Part shown: in pieces, positions 6,519-29,650 of the stretch
Numbering within the stretch: the stretch's first letter is position 1
Layout of the letters: the number at the start of each line of letters is the position of its first letter
Virus record (IMG/VR): IMGVR_UViG_2551306674_000008
Reading direction: 5' to 3' (one strand)
From: a virus
Taxonomy: Duplodnaviria; Heunggongvirae; Uroviricota; Caudoviricetes
DNA length: 33,240 nt
Made by a program: the position numbers and the translations under genes
The notes under the pieces: model-generated
What the model saw: the letters and a program-made list of their open reading frames with translations, nothing else
What the model was told of the DNA's origin: nothing
Database searches by the model: none

Positions 6519-7574
6519 TTAATTTTTAAATATGGATTGTATGTATTCTATAGTGCTATCTTTAGCTCTGATGTCTTTTAAAGTGTTATTTATGAAATCT
6601 ATTATTCTGTCATTACTTAATAGTGGCGATAACGCATAACATGTTGTTGTGAATGTCATGACGTCACTAAAGCTTAGTGAAACACCTTTTGTCGCAGCGT
6701 TCTCAATCGCAATAGACTCATCAATATCTAAGTTTGTTGCTCTTGGCCCTTTAAGGAAGATAACTTTTGAAATCCCGGATGCAGATGCTTTTGAAACGGC
6801 GTGATTAACATCTTGATAATTAAATGGTTTGTCTTTCACTTCTATAGAAAGGAAAACTATATCATCATGATATACATCTATGTCCAGTATCTCTTTTGAG
6901 GAGCTACCGGCCTGATTGACGGGATGTGCTTTTATTATCCATCCTCTTTGTTCACCTAATAAGTGTAACGAAATTGCGGCAGCAATCGCGCATGTTTCTC
7001 CATCACAAGGATGAGATATAATATTATAAATAATCTTATGGAAATCAAAATTAATTGAGTTCGGCGTTATAACTCTATTGGTTCGCTGTAGGGTAAAATA
7101 TAATGCAATAACAAGCATTTCATAAGCTAAGATTTGGGTTGTTGCTGCATGTAATATATCAATTGAAAGTTGTTGTAAAACCTTATCATTTCCTCTGCGC
7201 ACAGGGTTATCAGAGGAGTGGAGCATGTAACGAGCTGGTTTATTTAGAAATGGCTCATTTGATGCGCCTAACTTACCCTCTAAAAATGGGCCTTCTACTT
7301 TGCCTACTATTACCGAATGACATAAACTTCTTGCATCATAGGCTCCGTCTACGGGGGCATTAGCTTGTAAAGCCAGAGGGTTTACTCTAGGGTCTGTTGC
7401 TTTAGCAAGTAAACCAGTAATAAGTATATATCTGTATGTAAGGTGGGTGCCTAAAATTACATTTTGAATGGAGACCCATTGATTATTTGTTTTGTAATCA
7501 GTTAATTTTTTTGCATCGTTGATTGCATTTATAATTACATTATAGGCTTGCTCATGATTTACTAATACTTTCAT
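6519..7574 (-). CDS. putative Type II restriction endonuclease (351 aa), unknown specificity
   Basis: AT-rich gene immediately downstream of and overlapping an HTH controller gene, divergent from a C5-methyltransferase; candidate PD-(D/E)xK core in YHDDIVFLSIEVKDK; no family assignment possible by eye. Confidence 0.6.
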   Translation of the reverse strand: MKVLVNHEQAYNVIINAINDAKKLTDYKTNNQWVSIQNVILGTHLTYRYILITGLLAKATDPRVNPLALQANAPVDGAYDARSLCHSVIVGKVEGPFLEGKLGASNEPFLNKPARYMLHSSDNPVRRGNDKVLQQLSIDILHAATTQILAYEMLVIALYFTLQRTNRVITPNSINFDFHKIIYNIISHPCDGETCAIAAAISLHLLGEQRGWIIKAHPVNQAGSSSKEILDIDVYHDDIVFLSIEVKDKPFNYQDVNHAVSKASASGISKVIFLKGPRATNLDIDESIAIENAATKGVSLSFSDVMTFTTTCYALSPLLSNDRIIDFINNTLKDIRAKDSTIEYIQSIFKN

Positions 7575-7866
7575 AGGTGTCCTTTAGTAAGATATCCATT
7601 GGTAGACCTAATCGGCTTGCAACCACCTCTAATAATTCAAATAGTTCTAAAGCATCTAATCGCCTTTCAAAGCTTTCGATTTTAGATATATCTGATTGTG
7701 ATAATCCTAGAAAAATGGCCAATTCTGACTGCGAAAGAGAAGCTTCTTTGCGTAGTTTGGTGAGAAGCTGGACTAGGCACCTGTATCTATGATCATGTAT
7801 AGTTGGTTGTCGTTTTGCCATGTGGTTTAGAAGGTGATTGATTGTGTGTCGATCCTTACCTATCAT
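7552..7866 (-). CDS. XRE-family HTH regulator, probable R-M controller (C) protein
   Basis: HTH segment LSQSELAIFLGLSQSDISKIE; overlaps the start of the downstream endonuclease gene by 23 bp, the classic C-R arrangement; no SD before either candidate start (alternative ATG at 7821), consistent with leaderless C transcripts. Confidence 0.6.
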   Translation of the reverse strand: MIGKDRHTINHLLNHMAKRQPTIHDHRYRCLVQLLTKLRKEASLSQSELAIFLGLSQSDISKIESFERRLDALELFELLEVVASRLGLPMDILLKDTYESISKS

Positions 7867-9035
7867 TGGTTTTATTCCAAAATCGAATAATTGGTGCTAA
7901 AGAAGTGAACAAAATTTCAGCGGTGAGCTTATTTACTGGGGCAGGAGGGATGGATGTCGGTTTCTCTAATGCCGGGTTCCGAACAGTTTGGGCCAATGAT
8001 ATAGATAAGGATGCATGTGATACATTTAAGCTTAATCATGAATCACCTGTTTTTTGTGGTGATATTGATGAGATGCTAAGTGAATTGTCTGGGCTGAAAA
8101 ATATAGGTTGTGTTTTTGGTGGGCCTCCATGCCAAGGATTTTCTGTGGCAGGGAAAATGGACGCTCATGATCCACGTAGTAAGCTGGTTATGTCATTCAT
8201 GCGGGCGGTGGATATAATTCAACCAGAATGCTTTGTTATGGAGAATGTTAAGGCTTTAGCACAGTTGTCCAAATTTGAACCAGTTAGGTGTGAACTGTTT
8301 AAGATGGCTGAAAAGTCAGGCTATCGTTCAGCCTTGCTGGTGCTGAATTCTAAAGATTTTGGCGTTCCTCAGAATAGGGAACGTATGTTTTTTATAGGGT
8401 TTCGTTCCGAAAATGATGTGAAACGAGTTGAGGTGGCGATAAAAAAATACCAATATCTTTCGCCCACAGTTGGTGAGATTATTCGGCCTTTAGGGCGAGC
8501 GGGTAATCCAAACAATTCAAGAGTCTGTAATGCAAGGATTACAAATGCTGCTAAGCCAGTATTACGGAAGTCACCTTACGCGGGAATGATGTTTAACGGG
8601 CAGGGAAGACCAATTAACCCGAATGGGTATGCTTCAACTATAGCTGCTTCTATGGGGGGGAATAGGACACCAATTATTGATGAAGAACACCTTTATGATG
8701 GCTCAACAAGTTATGTTGAGACTTATCATAATCATCTAATGAATGGTGGTGAGCCAAAAGATATGCACGATGTACCTAGTCGTTTACGTCGACTAACGAT
8801 AGATGAGGCTCTTTTGATTCAAACATTCCCGAGTAATTATGTCTTTGTGGGGAAAAATTCGTCAATTTGGCGTCAGATAGGGAATGCTGTGCCTTGTAAA
8901 TTGGCGCAGGCTGTTGCTGCAGGGGTTTTGGATGTCCTTACTGGTAAAACTATTAATGTTCAAAAGAGTCAAACAGAGTTGAGTTTGAATTCGAAAAACG
9001 GATCACATTTTCAAACCGATGGATGCAGAATTTAA
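7842..9035 (+). CDS. DNA (cytosine-5)-methyltransferase
   Basis: Motif I LFTGAGGMDVGF, motif IV GGPPCQGFS, motif VI FVMENV, motif VIII QNRERMFFIGF, motif X GNAVP; TTG start at 7842 with AAGGTG 5 nt upstream (start uncertain; in-frame TTG 7866 and GTG 7905 also possible). Confidence 0.9.
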   Translation: MCVDPYLSLVLFQNRIIGAKEVNKISAVSLFTGAGGMDVGFSNAGFRTVWANDIDKDACDTFKLNHESPVFCGDIDEMLSELSGLKNIGCVFGGPPCQGFSVAGKMDAHDPRSKLVMSFMRAVDIIQPECFVMENVKALAQLSKFEPVRCELFKMAEKSGYRSALLVLNSKDFGVPQNRERMFFIGFRSENDVKRVEVAIKKYQYLSPTVGEIIRPLGRAGNPNNSRVCNARITNAAKPVLRKSPYAGMMFNGQGRPINPNGYASTIAASMGGNRTPIIDEEHLYDGSTSYVETYHNHLMNGGEPKDMHDVPSRLRRLTIDEALLIQTFPSNYVFVGKNSSIWRQIGNAVPCKLAQAVAAGVLDVLTGKTINVQKSQTELSLNSKNGSHFQTDGCRI

Positions 9036-23095: not shown

Positions 23096-23623
23096 ATGCA
23101 GCATTTGATAAATATAACGGCAGGTAATCCAAAAACGGTTGAACAATATCAATTGACAAAGGACTTTGATGTTGTCTGGTTTTTTTCAGAAGATGGTAAG
23201 AACTGGTACGAAGAACAAAAGTATTTTGCTGATGACACGATAAAAATAGCGTACGACAAAGATAATATTATCCGCTATGTGGAAAAGGATGTGACAGCTA
23301 TCAGACCAGATGGATTAAGTGTTGTTGAAGTGCCGGATATTACTGCTAATCGACGGGCGGACATTTCAGGGAACTGGATGTTTAAGGATGGCACAGTGAT
23401 CAAACGAATTTATACGGCAGAGGAATTGCAACAGCAGGCAGAAAACAGGAAAGCCAGACTTCTTGCAGATGCTGAATCCGTGATTTTGCCGCTAGAGCGT
23501 GCTGTCAGGCTGAATATGGCAACAGATGAGGAGCGTAGCCGACTGGAAAGATGGGAGCGCTACAGCGTTCTGGTCAGTCGTGTGGATCCTGCAAATCCTG
23601 AATGGCCGGAAATGCCGCAATAA
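23096..23623 (+). CDS. G: tail fiber assembly chaperone G (175 aa)
   Basis: 175 aa as in P2 gpG; immediately downstream of H. Confidence 0.8.
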
Positions 23624-23862
23624 CTTGTATGAACTCTAGTGGGAGCTTACATATCTATGGCACAGAGTAAAGCCTAATCTGACAGTCCGCTCTGTGCCAG
23701 AAGCGGACATTGCGGCGTTACGGCACGTTAGGTCAGATATTTAAATGCACATGGTCCGCTTGTGGCGGAAGGATACTTACAAGAGTTGGTGAGAGATAGT
23801 AAAATCAATATGAAAATTAAAATTCGGCAATAATTCCTGATATAGTCATCTTAATGAACATA

Positions 23863-23887
23863 AAAACTATCACAATAGGATAGTTTT
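23863..23887. terminator. AT-rich hairpin at the 3' end of the minus-strand cargo operon
   Basis: Perfect 9-bp stem AAAACTATC / GATAGTTTT with a 7-nt loop, just downstream of the stop at 23905; flanked by T-rich sequence on both strands. Confidence 0.3.
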
Positions 23888-23904
23888 TATGTCATACTTG
23901 TTAG

Positions 23905-24600
23905 TTAATCACTTAAGGAATGAAGTGAGGCTCGTTGTGCAGAGGTTAAGCTAAGGAGGATTTTTTCTCGATACTCAGGTGCAAAGGAAAAGAAAACATC
24001 AGGAAAAATTCTTATGATAGTTGATATCATAGTCTTAACCACCTTATCAATCACCTTCGAAATATTATCTATTTTAACCAAGTCTATTTCGGGAAAAACA
24101 TTTAAAGCTTTTATGTGAGCCATTTCTTTTACAGTAGCTGTATGTACGTGACTGCATAACGAAGAGTATTCAGCTTTTAAAGTTTCATGTAGTAGAGGAT
24201 TTTTTTTGAAGACAGGATGTTCCCCAGTTTGTTCAATTACCTTAAACAATGATTTTTCTTCAAGTATTGAAGGATCTAGTAAGCAACCTATTGATTTTAA
24301 AGAATTTTCAATATAACTTCGCATCATTAGATTTGCTGGTTTGTATGCACCATTTATAACCATAAACATAGCTGTACCAAGGTCAGATGAAGCTTCTTGC
24401 AATCGCTCCAATGAGTTGGCGTCTATTTTCTCCTTGGAGAAATGATACAAACAGTAAACAAGGCACATAAAAGAATAATATCTCTTATGTATCATGCTTA
24501 TTTTCCCTCTTGAGTTAATATTCTCGAAAACATTTTTTAATTTATATTCAGAGAAATAAGTAACTAACTCAGTGAAATCGCTGTTTACTTCTCTCGACAT
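23905..24600 (-). CDS. hypothetical protein (231 aa), third gene of the ParA-like operon; function unknown
   Basis: Long ORF in a strongly AT-rich island; 2-bp gap to the upstream gene; no motif recognisable by eye. Confidence 0.65.
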   Translation of the reverse strand: MSREVNSDFTELVTYFSEYKLKNVFENINSRGKISMIHKRYYSFMCLVYCLYHFSKEKIDANSLERLQEASSDLGTAMFMVINGAYKPANLMMRSYIENSLKSIGCLLDPSILEEKSLFKVIEQTGEHPVFKKNPLLHETLKAEYSSLCSHVHTATVKEMAHIKALNVFPEIDLVKIDNISKVIDKVVKTMISTIIRIFPDVFFSFAPEYREKILLSLTSAQRASLHSLSD

Positions 24601-24602
24601 TG

Positions 24603-25109
24603 TTAGTCCTTATTGAATATATCTTTTATAACTTCATTCCAGTCATATATCTCATTTTGAGCGCTAGAAAGGTTCTTCCTCTCTTTTATTCTACTCAAAA
24701 CTTGAGGGTTATTTGACATTGAATTGATAATATTATAAGCCTTACCTAAATCGGATGAGTTTTTCTCGTGAACGTCACACACGATTATGCCGATCATTTC
24801 CTCTCTAGATCTTTTTTCAGGCCTGCTGATTTCGATACCTAACATGCGTGCAAAATCATCTATATCTTTATTTTTTTGGAAGAGATCTTTGTCTAATAAA
24901 ATCCTCGGAAGATACCCAACAAGGAAACCTTTAATATCATTTTTTTTGGACTTTGAATTTCTTTCGTTAACTTCTAAATTATCAGTATAACTATCTTGAA
25001 GTAATTCAATAAAGTTGATTCTTGATAATTTTTTTGAAATAAAGGAAAACTCCTCTAAAAAGTTTAACAGTTGCTTAATTTCTTTTGAGTTATTTTTTTT
25101 GTCAGTCAT
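24603..25109 (-). CDS. hypothetical protein (168 aa), second gene of the ParA-like operon; lysine-rich, function unknown
   Basis: ORF overlapping the upstream ATPase gene by 4 bp (translational coupling); AT-rich; no recognisable motif. Confidence 0.65.
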   Translation of the reverse strand: MTDKKNNSKEIKQLLNFLEEFSFISKKLSRINFIELLQDSYTDNLEVNERNSKSKKNDIKGFLVGYLPRILLDKDLFQKNKDIDDFARMLGIEISRPEKRSREEMIGIIVCDVHEKNSSDLGKAYNIINSMSNNPQVLSRIKERKNLSSAQNEIYDWNEVIKDIFNKD

Positions 25110-25936
25110 AAGTCACCTACTCTAGAGAGAAGTTCGTCAGTAATTTTAGACAGCGAAAACTTCATATCCTCATCCGTTAAATTGTTAATAAATAAGCCTC
25201 TTGTTTGATTTCTTGCCAACTCAGTACGTTTGCTCAAATATGATTTAAAGATCTTATTACGCCAACGTTTTTGATTATTGAAGTAACGAAGACTTTCCTC
25301 ATATAAATTACTATTACCTTCAACCATATTAAAAACTATGCCCGCACATTCAATCTTAAGATCGAAATTTTCTCTCTTCTCATTTATAATGCTATCTAAT
25401 AGATCGATACCAGTGATCGAAAGAGGATCGGGTTTGGCTGGAATGAGGTAATAATCAGATGCAATTAATGCGCTGGACATCCAAACTGATGGGGTTGGTG
25501 GGGTATCAATTATGACATAATCATAGTCATTTTCATGGATTTTAAGAAAGCGTCTAAGCTTGTTTTCTATCCCTTCTCCTGGTTTCATTTCAATTTTATA
25601 TAGCCCAAGGCTTCCGGGAACAATGTGAAAATTATCATTTAATTGAATTGGTGTTATATCGGCTAATTCTTTAGGTGTGTTAACTAAAGGACCAGTCATT
25701 GTAGATAGTCGAATTTTTGAACTATAAAAAATATCACATATGCTATCGCCTCCGCTTTTCATATGTGCAACATATTTGCTTGTATCCATTACACATTGCG
25801 TTGCGTTAAATTGTGGGTCGATATCTATTAATAATATTTTTTGCCCAAGTTTATCTGAAAGATGATTAGCAATATTGGTAGCCAATGTTGACTTACCAAC
25901 GCCACCTTTCATATTGATTAAGCTAATAACTTTCAA
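25106..25936 (-). CDS. ParA/MinD/Soj-family P-loop ATPase (276 aa)
   Basis: Deviant Walker A MKGGVGKST near the N-terminus; LLIDIDPQ and VIIDTPP motifs typical of ParA/Soj; TTG start with AGGAG 8 nt upstream; AT-rich. Confidence 0.85.
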   Translation of the reverse strand: MKVISLINMKGGVGKSTLATNIANHLSDKLGQKILLIDIDPQFNATQCVMDTSKYVAHMKSGGDSICDIFYSSKIRLSTMTGPLVNTPKELADITPIQLNDNFHIVPGSLGLYKIEMKPGEGIENKLRRFLKIHENDYDYVIIDTPPTPSVWMSSALIASDYYLIPAKPDPLSITGIDLLDSIINEKRENFDLKIECAGIVFNMVEGNSNLYEESLRYFNNQKRWRNKIFKSYLSKRTELARNQTRGLFINNLTDEDMKFSLSKITDELLSRVGDL

Positions 25937-26176
25937 TCTTCTTGCTCCTGTTTTGATTAACGCTAAGCTTTTTCATCAGCATTGAAATTTAACATGTGTT
26001 TTACAAACTTATGTCTTATCACTACCTTATCATTTTTTACATACACCATAAATATTTTTAACTAAAAATTTTTGGTTTTCAACCTGAAATCTTTATCTTT
26101 AAAAACAAAACATTACAATATTTTTAGTAAGATGCCTTACCTAATGTAATGTGAATGGCTCAATTTTGATTAACAC
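25937..26176 (-). promoter_or_regulatory. AT-rich promoter/operator region of the ParA-like operon
   Basis: Imperfect direct repeats TTTTGATTAAC(G/A)C-TAAGCT at about 25951-25969 and 26164-26183; nested palindrome CATTACA...GTAAG-ATGC-CTTAC...TGTAATG at about 26111-26151; A5T5 palindrome near 26074. Confidence 0.45.
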
Positions 26177-26443
26177 TTAAGCTATGTTAATAATGGTTTT
26201 GTAAGTGTGATGAGGGTTCCATATGAAGAAGTGATTTCCCGAACAATACAACATGAATATCATCCTCGTAGTCGGTGTTTCTTCACATGAACTCTGTCGC
26301 AAATACGCTATATGAAACGTGGCAAGATGAATGTACCTGAGGTTATCAATCTTAAACCGCTTGAGAGTACGCCCTGATCCTGCCCGTTGATAAACTAACT
26401 GCATTGTTTGTAATGCTTCATCGGTGGTGAGAACAAGTTTCAT
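26177..26443 (-). CDS. hypothetical small protein (88 aa); possibly a remnant or the first gene of the cargo
   Basis: ORF on the same strand upstream of the ParA-like operon; moderately AT-rich; poor SD spacing before the ATG; the 3' end runs into the upstream repeat copy. Confidence 0.25.
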   Translation of the reverse strand: MKLVLTTDEALQTMQLVYQRAGSGRTLKRFKIDNLRYIHLATFHIAYLRQSSCEETPTTRMIFMLYCSGNHFFIWNPHHTYKTIINIA

Positions 26444-26538
26444 ACTTCCGCTTCTCGCTCAAAGCAGACTGTCAGATTTGATAGCGTTTTGGCTATGTAA
26501 GTTGCCAGTTGGGAAATGAGTGAGTACAAATCAGGACA

Positions 26539-26567
26539 GGCGGGCGAATTGCCCGCCTTTTCTTTAT
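26539..26567 (+). terminator. rho-independent terminator upstream of FI
   Basis: GGCGGGC-GAATT-GCCCGCC hairpin followed by TTTTCTTTAT on the plus strand. Confidence 0.6.
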
Positions 26568-26661
26568 CTGTTGTTTCATCCACTGACCAGCCAGGTCAAA
26601 TAGCGTCTCATGCACTGCCCAACAGAAAATAGTTGCACCCATTAACCACGGAGTTAAACGG

Positions 26662-27537
26662 ATGAGTGACTATCATCACGGCGTGCAGGTGCTGGAGATT
26701 AACGACGGCACCCGCGTCATTTCCACTGTATCCACTGCCATTGTCGGCATGGTCTGCACGGCCAGCGATGCGGATGCGGAAACCTTCCCCCTCAATAAAC
26801 CGGTGCTGATTACCAATGTGCAAAGCGCAATTGCAAAGGCCGGTAAAAAAGGCACGCTGGCGGCATCGTTGCAGGCTATCGCCGACCAGTCAAAACCGGT
26901 CACCGTTGTCGTGCGTGTGGAAGACGGCACCGGCGACGACGAGGAAACGAAACTCGCGCAGACCGTTTCCAATATCATCGGCACCACCGACGAAAACGGT
27001 CAGTACACCGGACTGAAAGCCCTGCTGGCGGCGGAGTCGGTAACCGGTGTTAAACCTCGCATTCTCGGTGTGCCGGGACTGGACACCAAAGAGGTGGCTG
27101 TTGCACTGGCATCAGTCTGTCAGAAGCTGCGCGCTTTCGGGTATATCAGCGCATGGGACTGTAAAACCATTTCCGAGGTGAAAGCCTACCGTCAGAATTT
27201 CAGCCAGCGTGAGCTGATGGTCATCTGGCCGGATTTCCTCGCATGGGATACGGTCGCCAGTACCACCGCCACCGCGTATGCCACCGCCCGTGCGCTGGGC
27301 CTGCGCGCTAAAATCGACCAGGAGCAGGGCTGGCATAAAACGCTGTCCAACGTCGGGGTAAACGGTGTTACCGGCATCAGTGCCTCTGTATTCTGGGATT
27401 TGCAGGAGTCCGGCACCGATGCTGACCTGTTGAACGAGTCAGGTGTCACAACGCTGATTCGCCGTGACGGTTTCCGCTTCTGGGGTAACCGTACCTGCTC
27501 TGATGACCCGCTGTTCCTCTTTGAAAACTACATATAA
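26662..27537 (+). pseudogene. FI: tail sheath gene FI, 3'-truncated (291 codons of about 396)
   Basis: N-terminal 290 aa read as a normal P2 sheath up to ...RRDGFRFWGNRTCSDDPLFLFENY, then I and a stop; the downstream sequence continues in another frame as tape-measure protein. Confidence 0.8.
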
Positions 27538-29650
27538 CCGCCTGACGGACTCCGTTAAACGCCAGCAGCGGGAACTGGCCGCTGTGGGAATTAATACCCG
27601 CAATCTTGCACATGATGAGCAGGGACTGAAAAACCGTATCAGTGAAACCACCGCACAGCTTAACCGTCAGCGTGACGCACTGGCGCGTGTCAGTGCACAA
27701 CAGGCAAAACTTAACGCAGTCAAACAGCGTTATCAGGCAGGCAAGGAACTGGCCGGAAATATGGCCTCAGTGGGCGCTGCCGGTGTGGGGATTGCGGCGG
27801 CGGGAACGATGGCCGGAGTTAAGTTGCTGATGCCCGGTTATGAGTTTGCGCAGAAAAACTCAGAATTGCAGGCTGTGCTCGGTGTGGCAAAAGACTCCGC
27901 CGAAATGGCCGCGCTACGCAAGCAGGCGCGCCAGCTCGGCGACAATACCGCAGCCTCGGCAGATGATGCAGCCGGTGCGCAGATTATTATTGCGAAAGCC
28001 GGTGGGGATGTTGATGCCATTCAGGCGGCAACGCCGGTCACGCTGAATATGGCGCTGGCGAACCGTCGCACGATGGAAGAAAACGCCGCCCTGCTGATGG
28101 GGATGAAATCCGCCTTTCAGCTTTCAAACGATAAGGTCGCTCATATCGGGGATGTTCTCTCCATGACGATGAACAAAACCGCCGCCGATTTTGATGGCAT
28201 GAGCGATGCGCTGACCTATGCCGCACCTGTGGCAAAAAATGCCGGTGTCAGCATTGAAGAAACCGCCGCAATGGTCGGGGCACTGCATGATGCAAAAATT
28301 ACCGGTTCAATGGCGGGGACGGGAAGCCGTGCCGTGTTAAGCCGCCTGCAGGCACCGACGGGAAAAGCATGGGATGCACTGAAAGAGCTTGGCGTGAAAA
28401 CCTCAGACAGTAAAGGGAATACCCGACCAGTATTTACCATTCTGAAAGAAATGCAGGCCAGTTTTGAGAAAAACCGGCTCGGTACTGCCCAGCAGGCTGA
28501 ATACATGAAAACTATTTTCGGTGAGGAGGCCAGCTCAGCCGCCGCCGTGCTGATGACTGCCGCCTCAACCGGAAAGCTGGACAAACTGACCGCTGCGTTT
28601 AAAGCCTCAGACGGGAAGACCGCCGAGCTGGTAAATATCATGCAGGACAACCTCGGCGGTGACTTTAAGGAGTTTCAGTCCGCTTATGAGGCGGTGGGGA
28701 CTGACCTGTTTGACCAGCAGGAAGGCGCGCTGCGTAAGCTCACGCAGACGGCCACAAAGTATGTGTTAAAACTCGACGGCTGGATACAGAAAAACAAATC
28801 ACTGGCGTCAACCATCGGCCTCATTGTCGGTGGCGCACTGGCGCTTACTGGCATCATCGGTGCCATTGGTCTTGTAGCCTGGCCGGTTATCACCGGCATT
28901 AATGCCATCATCGCGGCAGCAGGCGCAATGGGGGCAATTTTCACGACGGTTGGCAGTGCTGTTATGACCGCCATCGGGGCGATTAGCTGGCCGGTTGTGG
29001 CTGTGGTGGCCGCTATTGTCGCCGGGGCGTTACTTATCCGTAAATACTGGGAGCCTGTCAGCGCATTCTTTGGCGGTGTGGTTGAAGGGCTGAAAGCGGC
29101 ATTTGCGCCGGTGGGGGAGCTGTTCACGCCACTTAAGCCGGTGTTTGACTGGCTGGGTGAAAAGTTACAGGCCGCGTGGCAGTGGTTTAAAAACCTGATT
29201 GCCCCGGTCAAAGCCACCCAGGACACCCTGAACCGTTGCCGTGACACGGGCGTCATGTTCGGGCAGGCACTGGCTGACGCGCTGATGCTGCCGCTTAATG
29301 CGTTCAACAAACTGCGCAGCGGTATTGACTGGGTACTGGAAAAACTCGGCGTCATCAACAAAGAGTCAGGCACGCTTGACCAGACCGCCGCCAGAACTCG
29401 TGCCGCCACGTATGGCACCGGTGGTTATATTCCGGCGACCAGCTCTTATGCTGGCTATCAGGCTTATCAGCCAGTTACGGCACCGGCTGGCCGCTCTTAT
29501 GTGGACCAGAGTAAAAACGAATATCACATCAGCCTGACGGGCGGTACTGCGCCGGGGACACAGCTCGACCGCCAGTTACAGGATGCGCTCGAAAAATACG
29601 AGCGGGATAAACGTGCGCGCGCCCGTGCCAGCATGATGCATGACGGTTAA
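27533..29650 (+). pseudogene. T: tail tape-measure gene T, 5'-truncated and fused out of frame to FI
   Basis: Long ORF (track 27464-29650) whose first about 23 codons are FI sequence read in another frame; no start codon or RBS at the junction; glycine/alanine-rich hydrophobic tape-measure segments; followed directly by U. Confidence 0.75.

Follow-up and report, generated by a model that had tools for sequence, protein, structure and literature searches.

The virus sequence IMGVR_UViG_2551306674_000008 (IMG/VR; 33,240 nt), which we call the window in the following, i.e. the whole stretch of DNA that was analysed, represents a P2-like prophage with an AT-rich three-gene island in its Z/fun slot between the tail genes G and FI. 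We consider it probable (roughly 0.7) that this island belongs, as a divergent member, to the RemAIN family of prophage defence and prophage-competition systems, carried as lysogenic-conversion cargo by a P2-like prophage that is now defective. The three genes encode a ParA/Soj-type ATPase of 276 aa, a 168-aa protein and a 231-aa protein (Table 1). A first-pass annotation, made from the sequence alone, had proposed a candidate undescribed defence system at this position, knowing of no described system with such an ATPase and such partners, and had named homology to a characterised defence system as a reason to abandon the proposal. Such homology is what we find, as all three proteins are homologous to those of RemAIN-type triads. 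Thus, the defence half of the proposal stands on homology, with an anti-phage function being most likely, whereas the word undescribed has to be dropped, since RemAIN, which has the same gene order, was described in 2024 and a pairing of ParA with HEPN proteins was predicted in 2013.

RemAIN (Sargen & Helaine 2024, Cell Host Microbe) is, according to PMC13043305, the name given to STM14_3218-3220 of prophage Gifsy-1 in Salmonella Typhimurium 14028, and comprises the ATPase RemA, the immunity protein RemI and the HEPN tRNA nuclease RemN. It is presented as an anticodon nuclease that blocks both co-resident prophages and incoming phages (PMC13043305, PMC12409363, PMC12626290, PMC12724215). Kurasz et al. 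(2023) had described STM14_3218-3220 as a ParA-like ATPase gene of 840 bp with two further genes of 309 and 663 bp, which are constitutively expressed and needed for the RtcR RNA-repair signal (PMC9879122). Furthermore, these genes lower Gifsy titres, and their deletion raised the titres 2-4-fold (PMC9879122).

A scan of IMG/VR with a profile of the triad ATPase recovered 209 viral contigs. Among the best 80 loci, the ATPase gene is followed by a gene for 110-146 aa and then by one for 215-243 aa wherever the contig is intact; a few of these loci are truncated, or their third gene is fragmented. The genes of loci L062-L068 are exactly 840, 309 (GTG start) and 663 bp long, and the flanks of L062, the locus on which flanks were checked, match Gifsy-1 and Gifsy-2 in their immunity region. 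Based on the gene lengths, the gene order, the Gifsy-like flanks and the ParA-like ATPase, we take L062-L068 to be RemAIN. In BLASTP, the ATPases of the window and of L062 share 35% identity over 207 aa (E 1e-35), and the motifs INMKGGVGK and DPQFNATQ are common to both. For the partner proteins, hhalign aligns the 168-aa family with the RemI-type profile over 85 columns (97.4% probability, E 9.7e-12) and the 231-aa family with the RemN-type profile over 199 columns (97.6% probability, E 3.7e-12). Hereby, the latter two share the motifs R-S-x-I-E-[NTH] and Y-x3-C-x3-H, and one Arg and one His are invariant in both putative nuclease families (R94 and H153 in the window protein, R86 and H142 in L062).

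The first bridge from the window cassette to the RemAIN-type is a triad of Escherichia coli O103:H2 strain FWSEC0007 (L013; NZ_CP031908, 4224-6146). The ATPase of this triad shares 38% identity with the window ATPase and 58-59% with the ATPase of the Gifsy-like loci, and for the third protein a match to the 231-aa profile was obtained (79% probability, E 1.7e-5). This RemAIN-type triad, with proteins of 283, 137 and 221 aa, is flanked by two integrase genes at the border of a CPS-53-like prophage and occurs in 16 E. coli records. An IMG/VR search with its third protein returned near-identical copies only.

For the 231-aa protein a confident AlphaFold model was obtained (pLDDT 84), and the predicted fold appears HEPN-like. 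Sub-threshold matches to DUF5677 were found in 14 of 17 members of its family, and a few members show such matches to HEPN or DUF4145. No Pfam HEPN model reaches threshold in the family, RemN-type proteins of the RemAIN branch reach no Pfam model, and a Foldseek search of the 231-aa model against the PDB gave nothing significant. In alignments of 64-83 sequences of the family, E69, S72, G84, Y86, K87, R94, I97, Y145, H153 and P170 are invariant and D73 and E98 nearly so, and two motifs stand out, R-S-x-I-E-[NT] and Y-x2-L-C-x3-H.

The three genes are conserved as a unit. In all nine neighbourhoods inspected individually, the order of the ATPase, a protein of ~165 aa and one of ~235 aa is kept, with genes that overlap or abut. 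Homologues are rare in direct searches (18 clusters for the 231-aa and 12 for the 168-aa protein), and profile searches yield 86 proteins of the 231-aa family and 204 representatives of the 168-aa family. A scan of GTDB with one genome per species gave 19 loci, with the ATPase gene directly upstream in 19/19 and the middle gene detected in 18/19. The hosts comprise Enterobacter, Pseudomonas, Denitromonas, Alteromonadaceae, Deltaproteobacteria, Bacteroidota, Bacillota, Planctomycetota, Melainabacteria and Cloacimonadota. Two GTDB loci look damaged: in Pseudomonas cerasi (L026) an ATPase fragment lies ~2.2 kb upstream of the middle gene, and in a Bacteroidetes metagenome-assembled genome (L031) both the ATPase gene and the middle gene are broken into fragments. 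Conservation across phyla holds for each of the three proteins, in keeping with genuine genes, and their identities to the window co-vary between loci, decreasing from the ATPase over the 168-aa to the 231-aa protein. In comparison with the Enterobacter and Pectobacterium copies, the non-synonymous divergence (dN) is 0.06-0.22 at a synonymous divergence (dS) of ~2 or saturated; judged by these values, all three genes are under strong purifying selection.

With regard to its distribution, the whole cassette is present at an identity of at least 99.7% in 133 of 5,426 complete E. coli genomes (~2.5%), and ~990 genomes share the flanks only. Other triads were found in a lambdoid prophage between P and RusA/Q, in an Enterobacter island, in a Pectobacterium integrase island together with Mrr and two CcdAB pairs, downstream of groEL in the chromosomes of Elizabethkingia and one relative (Bacteroidota), on two metagenomic contigs, and directly after rep on the 5.8-kb mobilisable plasmid p11184 of Plesiomonas shigelloides (AJ249644; L012, 3664-5734). 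On p11184, which also carries RelBE, the start of the ATPase gene overlaps the rep stop; this ATPase gene is frameshifted, by sequencing error or inactivation, and both partner genes are intact. Neighbours of the GTDB loci include integrases, resolvases, transposases, type I restriction-modification, DRT UG13, PDC-S69, PDC-S06 and CbtA/CbeA, and the defence genes among them are suggestive. In tblastn searches, the 231-aa protein had no match in 50,697 isolated phage genomes and two matches in 72,556 plasmid records, one of them a chromosome-sized record.

Like RemAIN, the window cassette thus consists of three overlapping genes of similar sizes in the same order, occupies an accessory-gene slot of a prophage and encodes a ParA-like ATPase with the DPQFNATQ motif. 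It differs from RemAIN in that it belongs to a deep separate branch, which spans many phyla, extends to chromosomal islets and would share the RemAIN activity by homology. Moreover, the middle protein of this branch is ~35-65 aa longer and has a helix FLEELSW after its basic N-terminal tail, the third protein of the window has an Asn where the Gifsy-type RSMIEH has the HEPN His, and the host element is a P2-like myovirus with its Z/fun hotspot rather than a lambdoid immunity region.

Transferred to the window, RemAIN suggests a mechanism in which the 231-aa protein with its putative HEPN fold would be the effector RNase, most likely cutting tRNA anticodon loops and thereby stopping translation, and the 168-aa protein would be the immunity partner or inhibitor of this nuclease. 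The ATPase would act as the nucleotide-dependent switch or sensor, keeping the three proteins together in one unit and setting the nuclease free once lytic growth of a competing phage begins. In addition, the extra basic N-terminal tail of the 168-aa protein could, by analogy, work as the ATPase-stimulating N-terminal peptides of other ParA partners do. As in RemAIN, the cassette may be expressed in the lysogen. Its own promoter is presumably located in the AT-rich region upstream, in or close to which there are weak matches of sigma-70 type (26190-26163, 26082-26054).

Several points weigh against the assignment to RemAIN. The roles given to the window proteins are all borrowed from RemAIN through homology, L062 was equated with RemAIN on grounds other than sequence identity to the published STM14_3218-3220 genes, and the homology of the 168-aa and 231-aa proteins to the RemAIN-type clade is visible at the profile level only, BLAST of the two against RemAIN-type proteins detecting nothing. 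PADLOC v2 has no model for either partner protein, the defence-gene neighbours were noted without a genome-wide baseline, and predicted promoters upstream of the operon are no commoner than in shuffled sequence. Finally, the window protein reads R94-S-Y-I-E-N99 and hence lacks the HEPN motif Rx4-6H; at the position of the canonical His, 63 of the 64 sequences of the 231-aa family have N or T and one has S. With this residue replaced, the catalytic mechanism may differ or the activity may be lost.

In these cases the 231-aa protein would retain a RemN-like fold but be a non-catalytic RNA- or protein-binding protein, or would have a different active site, and the cassette would act by sequestration or on a target other than tRNA anticodon loops. 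In addition to the replaced His, the lack of a Pfam HEPN model at threshold and the extra N-terminal segment of the 168-aa protein, which is absent from RemI-type proteins, speak for such lost or changed chemistry. We nevertheless regard it as unlikely. The Gifsy-type RemN-like protein has the canonical His (RSMIEH), as do 9 of 40 members of the RemN-type clade, but the same position is N in 26 of these 40, which makes R94, E98, Y145 and H153 the likelier catalytic set. Neither branch shows any variation at R94, Y145 or H153, and little or none at D73 and E98, which points to a conserved active site made up of those residues, and the apparent strong purifying selection on all three genes also argues against a loss of function. 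The invariant H153 sits on a different helix from the R94 motif.

A less probable but possible reading, which we put forward tentatively, is that the window cassette represents a second, deeper RemAIN-like type with a mechanism of its own, characterised by a non-canonical active site, an ATPase-stimulating tail and state sensing. Its nuclease would use R94, E98, Y145 and H153 without the histidine of Rx4-6H, and its middle protein would have gained an N-terminal module whose tail stimulates the ATPase as the tails of ParB, ParG, MinE and McdB do. What is sensed would then be the state in which the ATPase is bound to ATP and the nucleoid, and not a phage protein. Compared to RemI-type proteins, the 168-aa protein has ~50 extra N-terminal residues, in which a basic tail of variable sequence precedes a helix with the conserved pattern F[LI]EELxW. 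In this second-type reading, the window branch, which occurs in at least eight phyla and has been missed by defence-annotation resources, stands against a RemAIN clade that is enterobacterial and prophage-bound.

Alternatively, the cassette may be a toxin-antitoxin (TA) or addiction module that mainly stabilises its mobile element or modulates the induction of that element without protecting from incoming phages. Anantharaman et al. (2013) predicted ParA/Soj-HEPN gene pairs as a TA system, in which the ATPase was proposed to control a HEPN RNase toxin (PMC3710099). In agreement with such a function, copies of the cassette adjoin other TA genes, one being located on the small plasmid with RelBE, the rise in Gifsy titres upon deletion is an effect on resident prophages (PMC9879122), and the defective P2-like prophage keeps its cassette intact. 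However, RemAIN is reported (PMC13043305, PMC12724215) to be protective against external phages too, and we judge a module confined to its own element to be improbable. As TA-like behaviour and abortive infection are compatible, it is more a narrower reading of the RemAIN assignment than a true alternative. The dyad of 2013 (MAE_18760 family) resembles the window cassette in pairing a ParA/Soj-type ATPase with a protein of HEPN fold, which is putative in the window, and differs from it in that the window genes form a triad whose middle gene is obligatory. Membership of the 231-aa protein in the MAE_18760 HEPN family was rejected: PF18737 (HEPN_MAE_28990/MAE_18760) gave no match at E up to 10 in 17 members and up to 1 in 9 further proteins, and the weak Pfam matches go to DUF5677.

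The ATPase at the head of the operon is of the deviant Walker A ParA type, as the first-pass annotation had recognised. It starts with MKVISLINMKGGVGKST, has VIIDTPP as Walker B and the clade motif DIDPQFNATQ, and matches Pfam AAA_31 (1e-37) as well as CbiA. Every triad ATPase that was aligned has an intact signature Lys, Walker A and Walker B, and the nearest phage ParAs reach no more than 35% identity. Since its closest solved relatives, pSM19035 delta, Soj and ParF, are true partition ATPases, a type Ib-like partition or stability module has to be weighed, in which the ATPase would move DNA bound by the 168-aa protein and the 231-aa protein would be accessory. NCBIfam ParA_partition also matches the ATPase (1e-25), though far under its curated cut-off, as holds for every NCBIfam partition model; one triad copy lies directly downstream of rep on p11184, and the 168-aa protein has a conserved basic N-terminal tail like the partners ParG and ParB. 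Type Ib systems (ParF/ParG of TP228, delta/omega of pSM19035) thus share with the window cassette a small deviant Walker A ATPase and a basic-tailed downstream partner.

The window cassette differs from them in several respects. No tandem or iterated repeats that could serve as a centromere lie by the operon, either here (TRF, 23600-26700) or in five other cassettes checked, families of direct repeats upstream are lacking here and in most other cassettes, and no conserved upstream DNA was found between cassettes. The 168-aa protein, which is lysine-rich as first noted, if mildly (20 K), is all-helical without a strand in its predicted model (pLDDT 75), and neither by family nor by structure does it match a ribbon-helix-helix (RHH) or helix-turn-helix (HTH) centromere binder. 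The third gene is obligatory, apparently HEPN-like in its predicted fold and homologous to the RemN-type clade that holds the putative RemN nuclease. Moreover, nearly all copies reside in integrated prophages or chromosomes; the two matches among the plasmid records include the chromosome-sized one, and the sole real plasmid copy, on p11184, has the frameshifted ATPase gene. A partition module, which the annotation had already judged a poor fit, was therefore rejected on the missing repeats, the missing RHH/HTH partner and the integrated contexts, and we regard it as very improbable.

Regarding the two partner proteins, in which the first reading of the sequence had recognised no motif, Pfam, NCBIfam and PADLOC v2 indeed gave no match, PHROGs places both only in families of unknown function, and profile searches of their families against PDB chains returned only noise. 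PADLOC v2 probably includes models for P2 fun(Z) and PD-type systems. Known PADLOC systems, including those of P2 hotspots, were rejected for want of a system-specific match (PADLOC-DB v2.0.0); the sole match within the cassette concerns the P-loop of the ATPase (PDC-M28B, residues 4-40). P2 fun(Z) and the PD-type systems (Vassallo 2022) are like the window cassette in being lysogenic-conversion morons in the same G/FI slot and in opposite orientation, but their genes are unrelated to it. AAA_31 ATPases, likened to the window ATPase by description, are also found as cargo of other prophage and satellite hotspots: GiPD474 of Gifsy-1 in strain 4/74, a single ParA-like gene of ~361 aa, protects Salmonella from phages (PMC12724215), and in the supplementary tables of Rousset 2022 such ATPases recur in P2/P4 hotspots with RelA_SpoT or a single hypothetical protein as partner. 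GiPD474 differs from the window cassette in being a single gene, and the Rousset cassettes in their partners. This hints that defence systems repeatedly employ ParA-type ATPases as a module for sensing or switching.

The position of the island follows from its match to E. coli S19-141 (RefSeq NZ_CP075640), whose P2-like prophage is 100% identical to the window over 23700-26600 and is annotated with the tail-fibre assembly protein (G) as left and the tail sheath (FI) as right neighbour. The three minus-strand open reading frames and their location between G and FI are as originally called. The GC content is 0.28-0.37 over 23800-26400, compared to 0.55-0.58 in the late genes on both sides (30-35% in the three cassette genes themselves, ~55% in the flanks), which bears out the AT-richness first noted. 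A 32-nt inverted repeat, the arms of which are 88% complementary, brackets the cargo; GenBank records entitled 'P2 proviral Z-region' (AJ5126xx) label the matching stretch 'right inverted repeat', and P2-like phages match the window from 26444 onward with 91-96% identity. The earlier view of a horizontally acquired cargo at Z/fun is supported. Among the defence hotspots of P2, the G/FI slot is recognised as the second (PMC9519451; 10.1101/2024.10.15.618418). Within the operon, AGGAG precedes the TTG start of the ATPase gene, the ATG of the 168-aa gene overlaps the ATPase stop by 4 nt (ATGA), and a gap of 2 nt separates the 168-aa gene stop from the start of the 231-aa gene.

Table 1. Features of the Z/fun island in the window
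Feature	Position	Strand	Remarks
remA-like gene: ParA/Soj-type deviant Walker A ATPase	25936..25106	-	276 aa, TTG start
remI-like gene: putative immunity/adaptor protein, all-helical, extra N-terminal basic tail and FLEEFS[FW] helix	25109..24603	-	168 aa
remN-like gene: putatively HEPN-like in fold, candidate tRNA/RNA nuclease effector	24600..23905	-	231 aa
AT-rich stretch upstream of the operon, presumed promoter region	25937..26176	-	
Possible terminator: perfect 14-bp hairpin directly 3' of the 231-aa gene	23858..23892	-	
Left inverted-repeat arm, edge of the P2 Z/fun variable region	23676..23707		equivalents annotated in AJ512680 and related records
Right inverted-repeat arm, edge of the P2 Z/fun variable region	26447..26478		

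The cargo additionally contains an 88-aa minus-strand open reading frame of intermediate GC content (26177-26443), just within the right inverted repeat, for which scans of Pfam, PADLOC v2, NCBIfam and PHROGs gave no family match. It was rejected as a fourth component because it is absent from every other cassette compared, and is probably a remnant or spurious.

Downstream of the island, the tail sheath gene FI (26662-27537) is truncated at ~27531 and runs into the tape-measure gene T (27464-29650). FII, E and E' are missing from the prophage, RefSeq marks the sheath gene as incomplete, and the alignment with P2-like phages is continuous only to ~27532 of the window, where it jumps. The prophage is thus defective and unable to make tails, and the cassette is nonetheless intact. 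In the first P2 hotspot, between the genes of the replication endonuclease gpA and the portal (~6519-9035), it carries a type II restriction-modification module with a SacI-family endonuclease, a small HTH controller protein and a cytosine methyltransferase, so that both P2 hotspots of this prophage are loaded with defence cargo.

In conclusion, the novelty of the island lies in a deep, widespread and unannotated branch of the RemAIN family and not in a new kind of system. Where previously a ParA family protein and two hypothetical proteins would have been noted, a specific assignment as probable RemAIN-like, tRNA-targeting defence can be proposed, which adds a further type of cargo to the second P2 defence hotspot. 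RemAIN itself appears as one tip of a much larger family with two branches, namely the prophage-rich RemAIN-type (the IMG/VR contigs recovered here) and a second one that reaches from Enterobacterales to Bacteroidota, Bacillota and Planctomycetota. Beyond the assignment, interest attaches to how large and how broadly spread this family is, to its being overlooked by current annotation resources, and to the changed motif and added domain of the window branch. The invariant residues offer targets for mutation, and the comparison of the two branches bears on a question posed by RemAIN itself, namely what its ParA-like ATPase senses.

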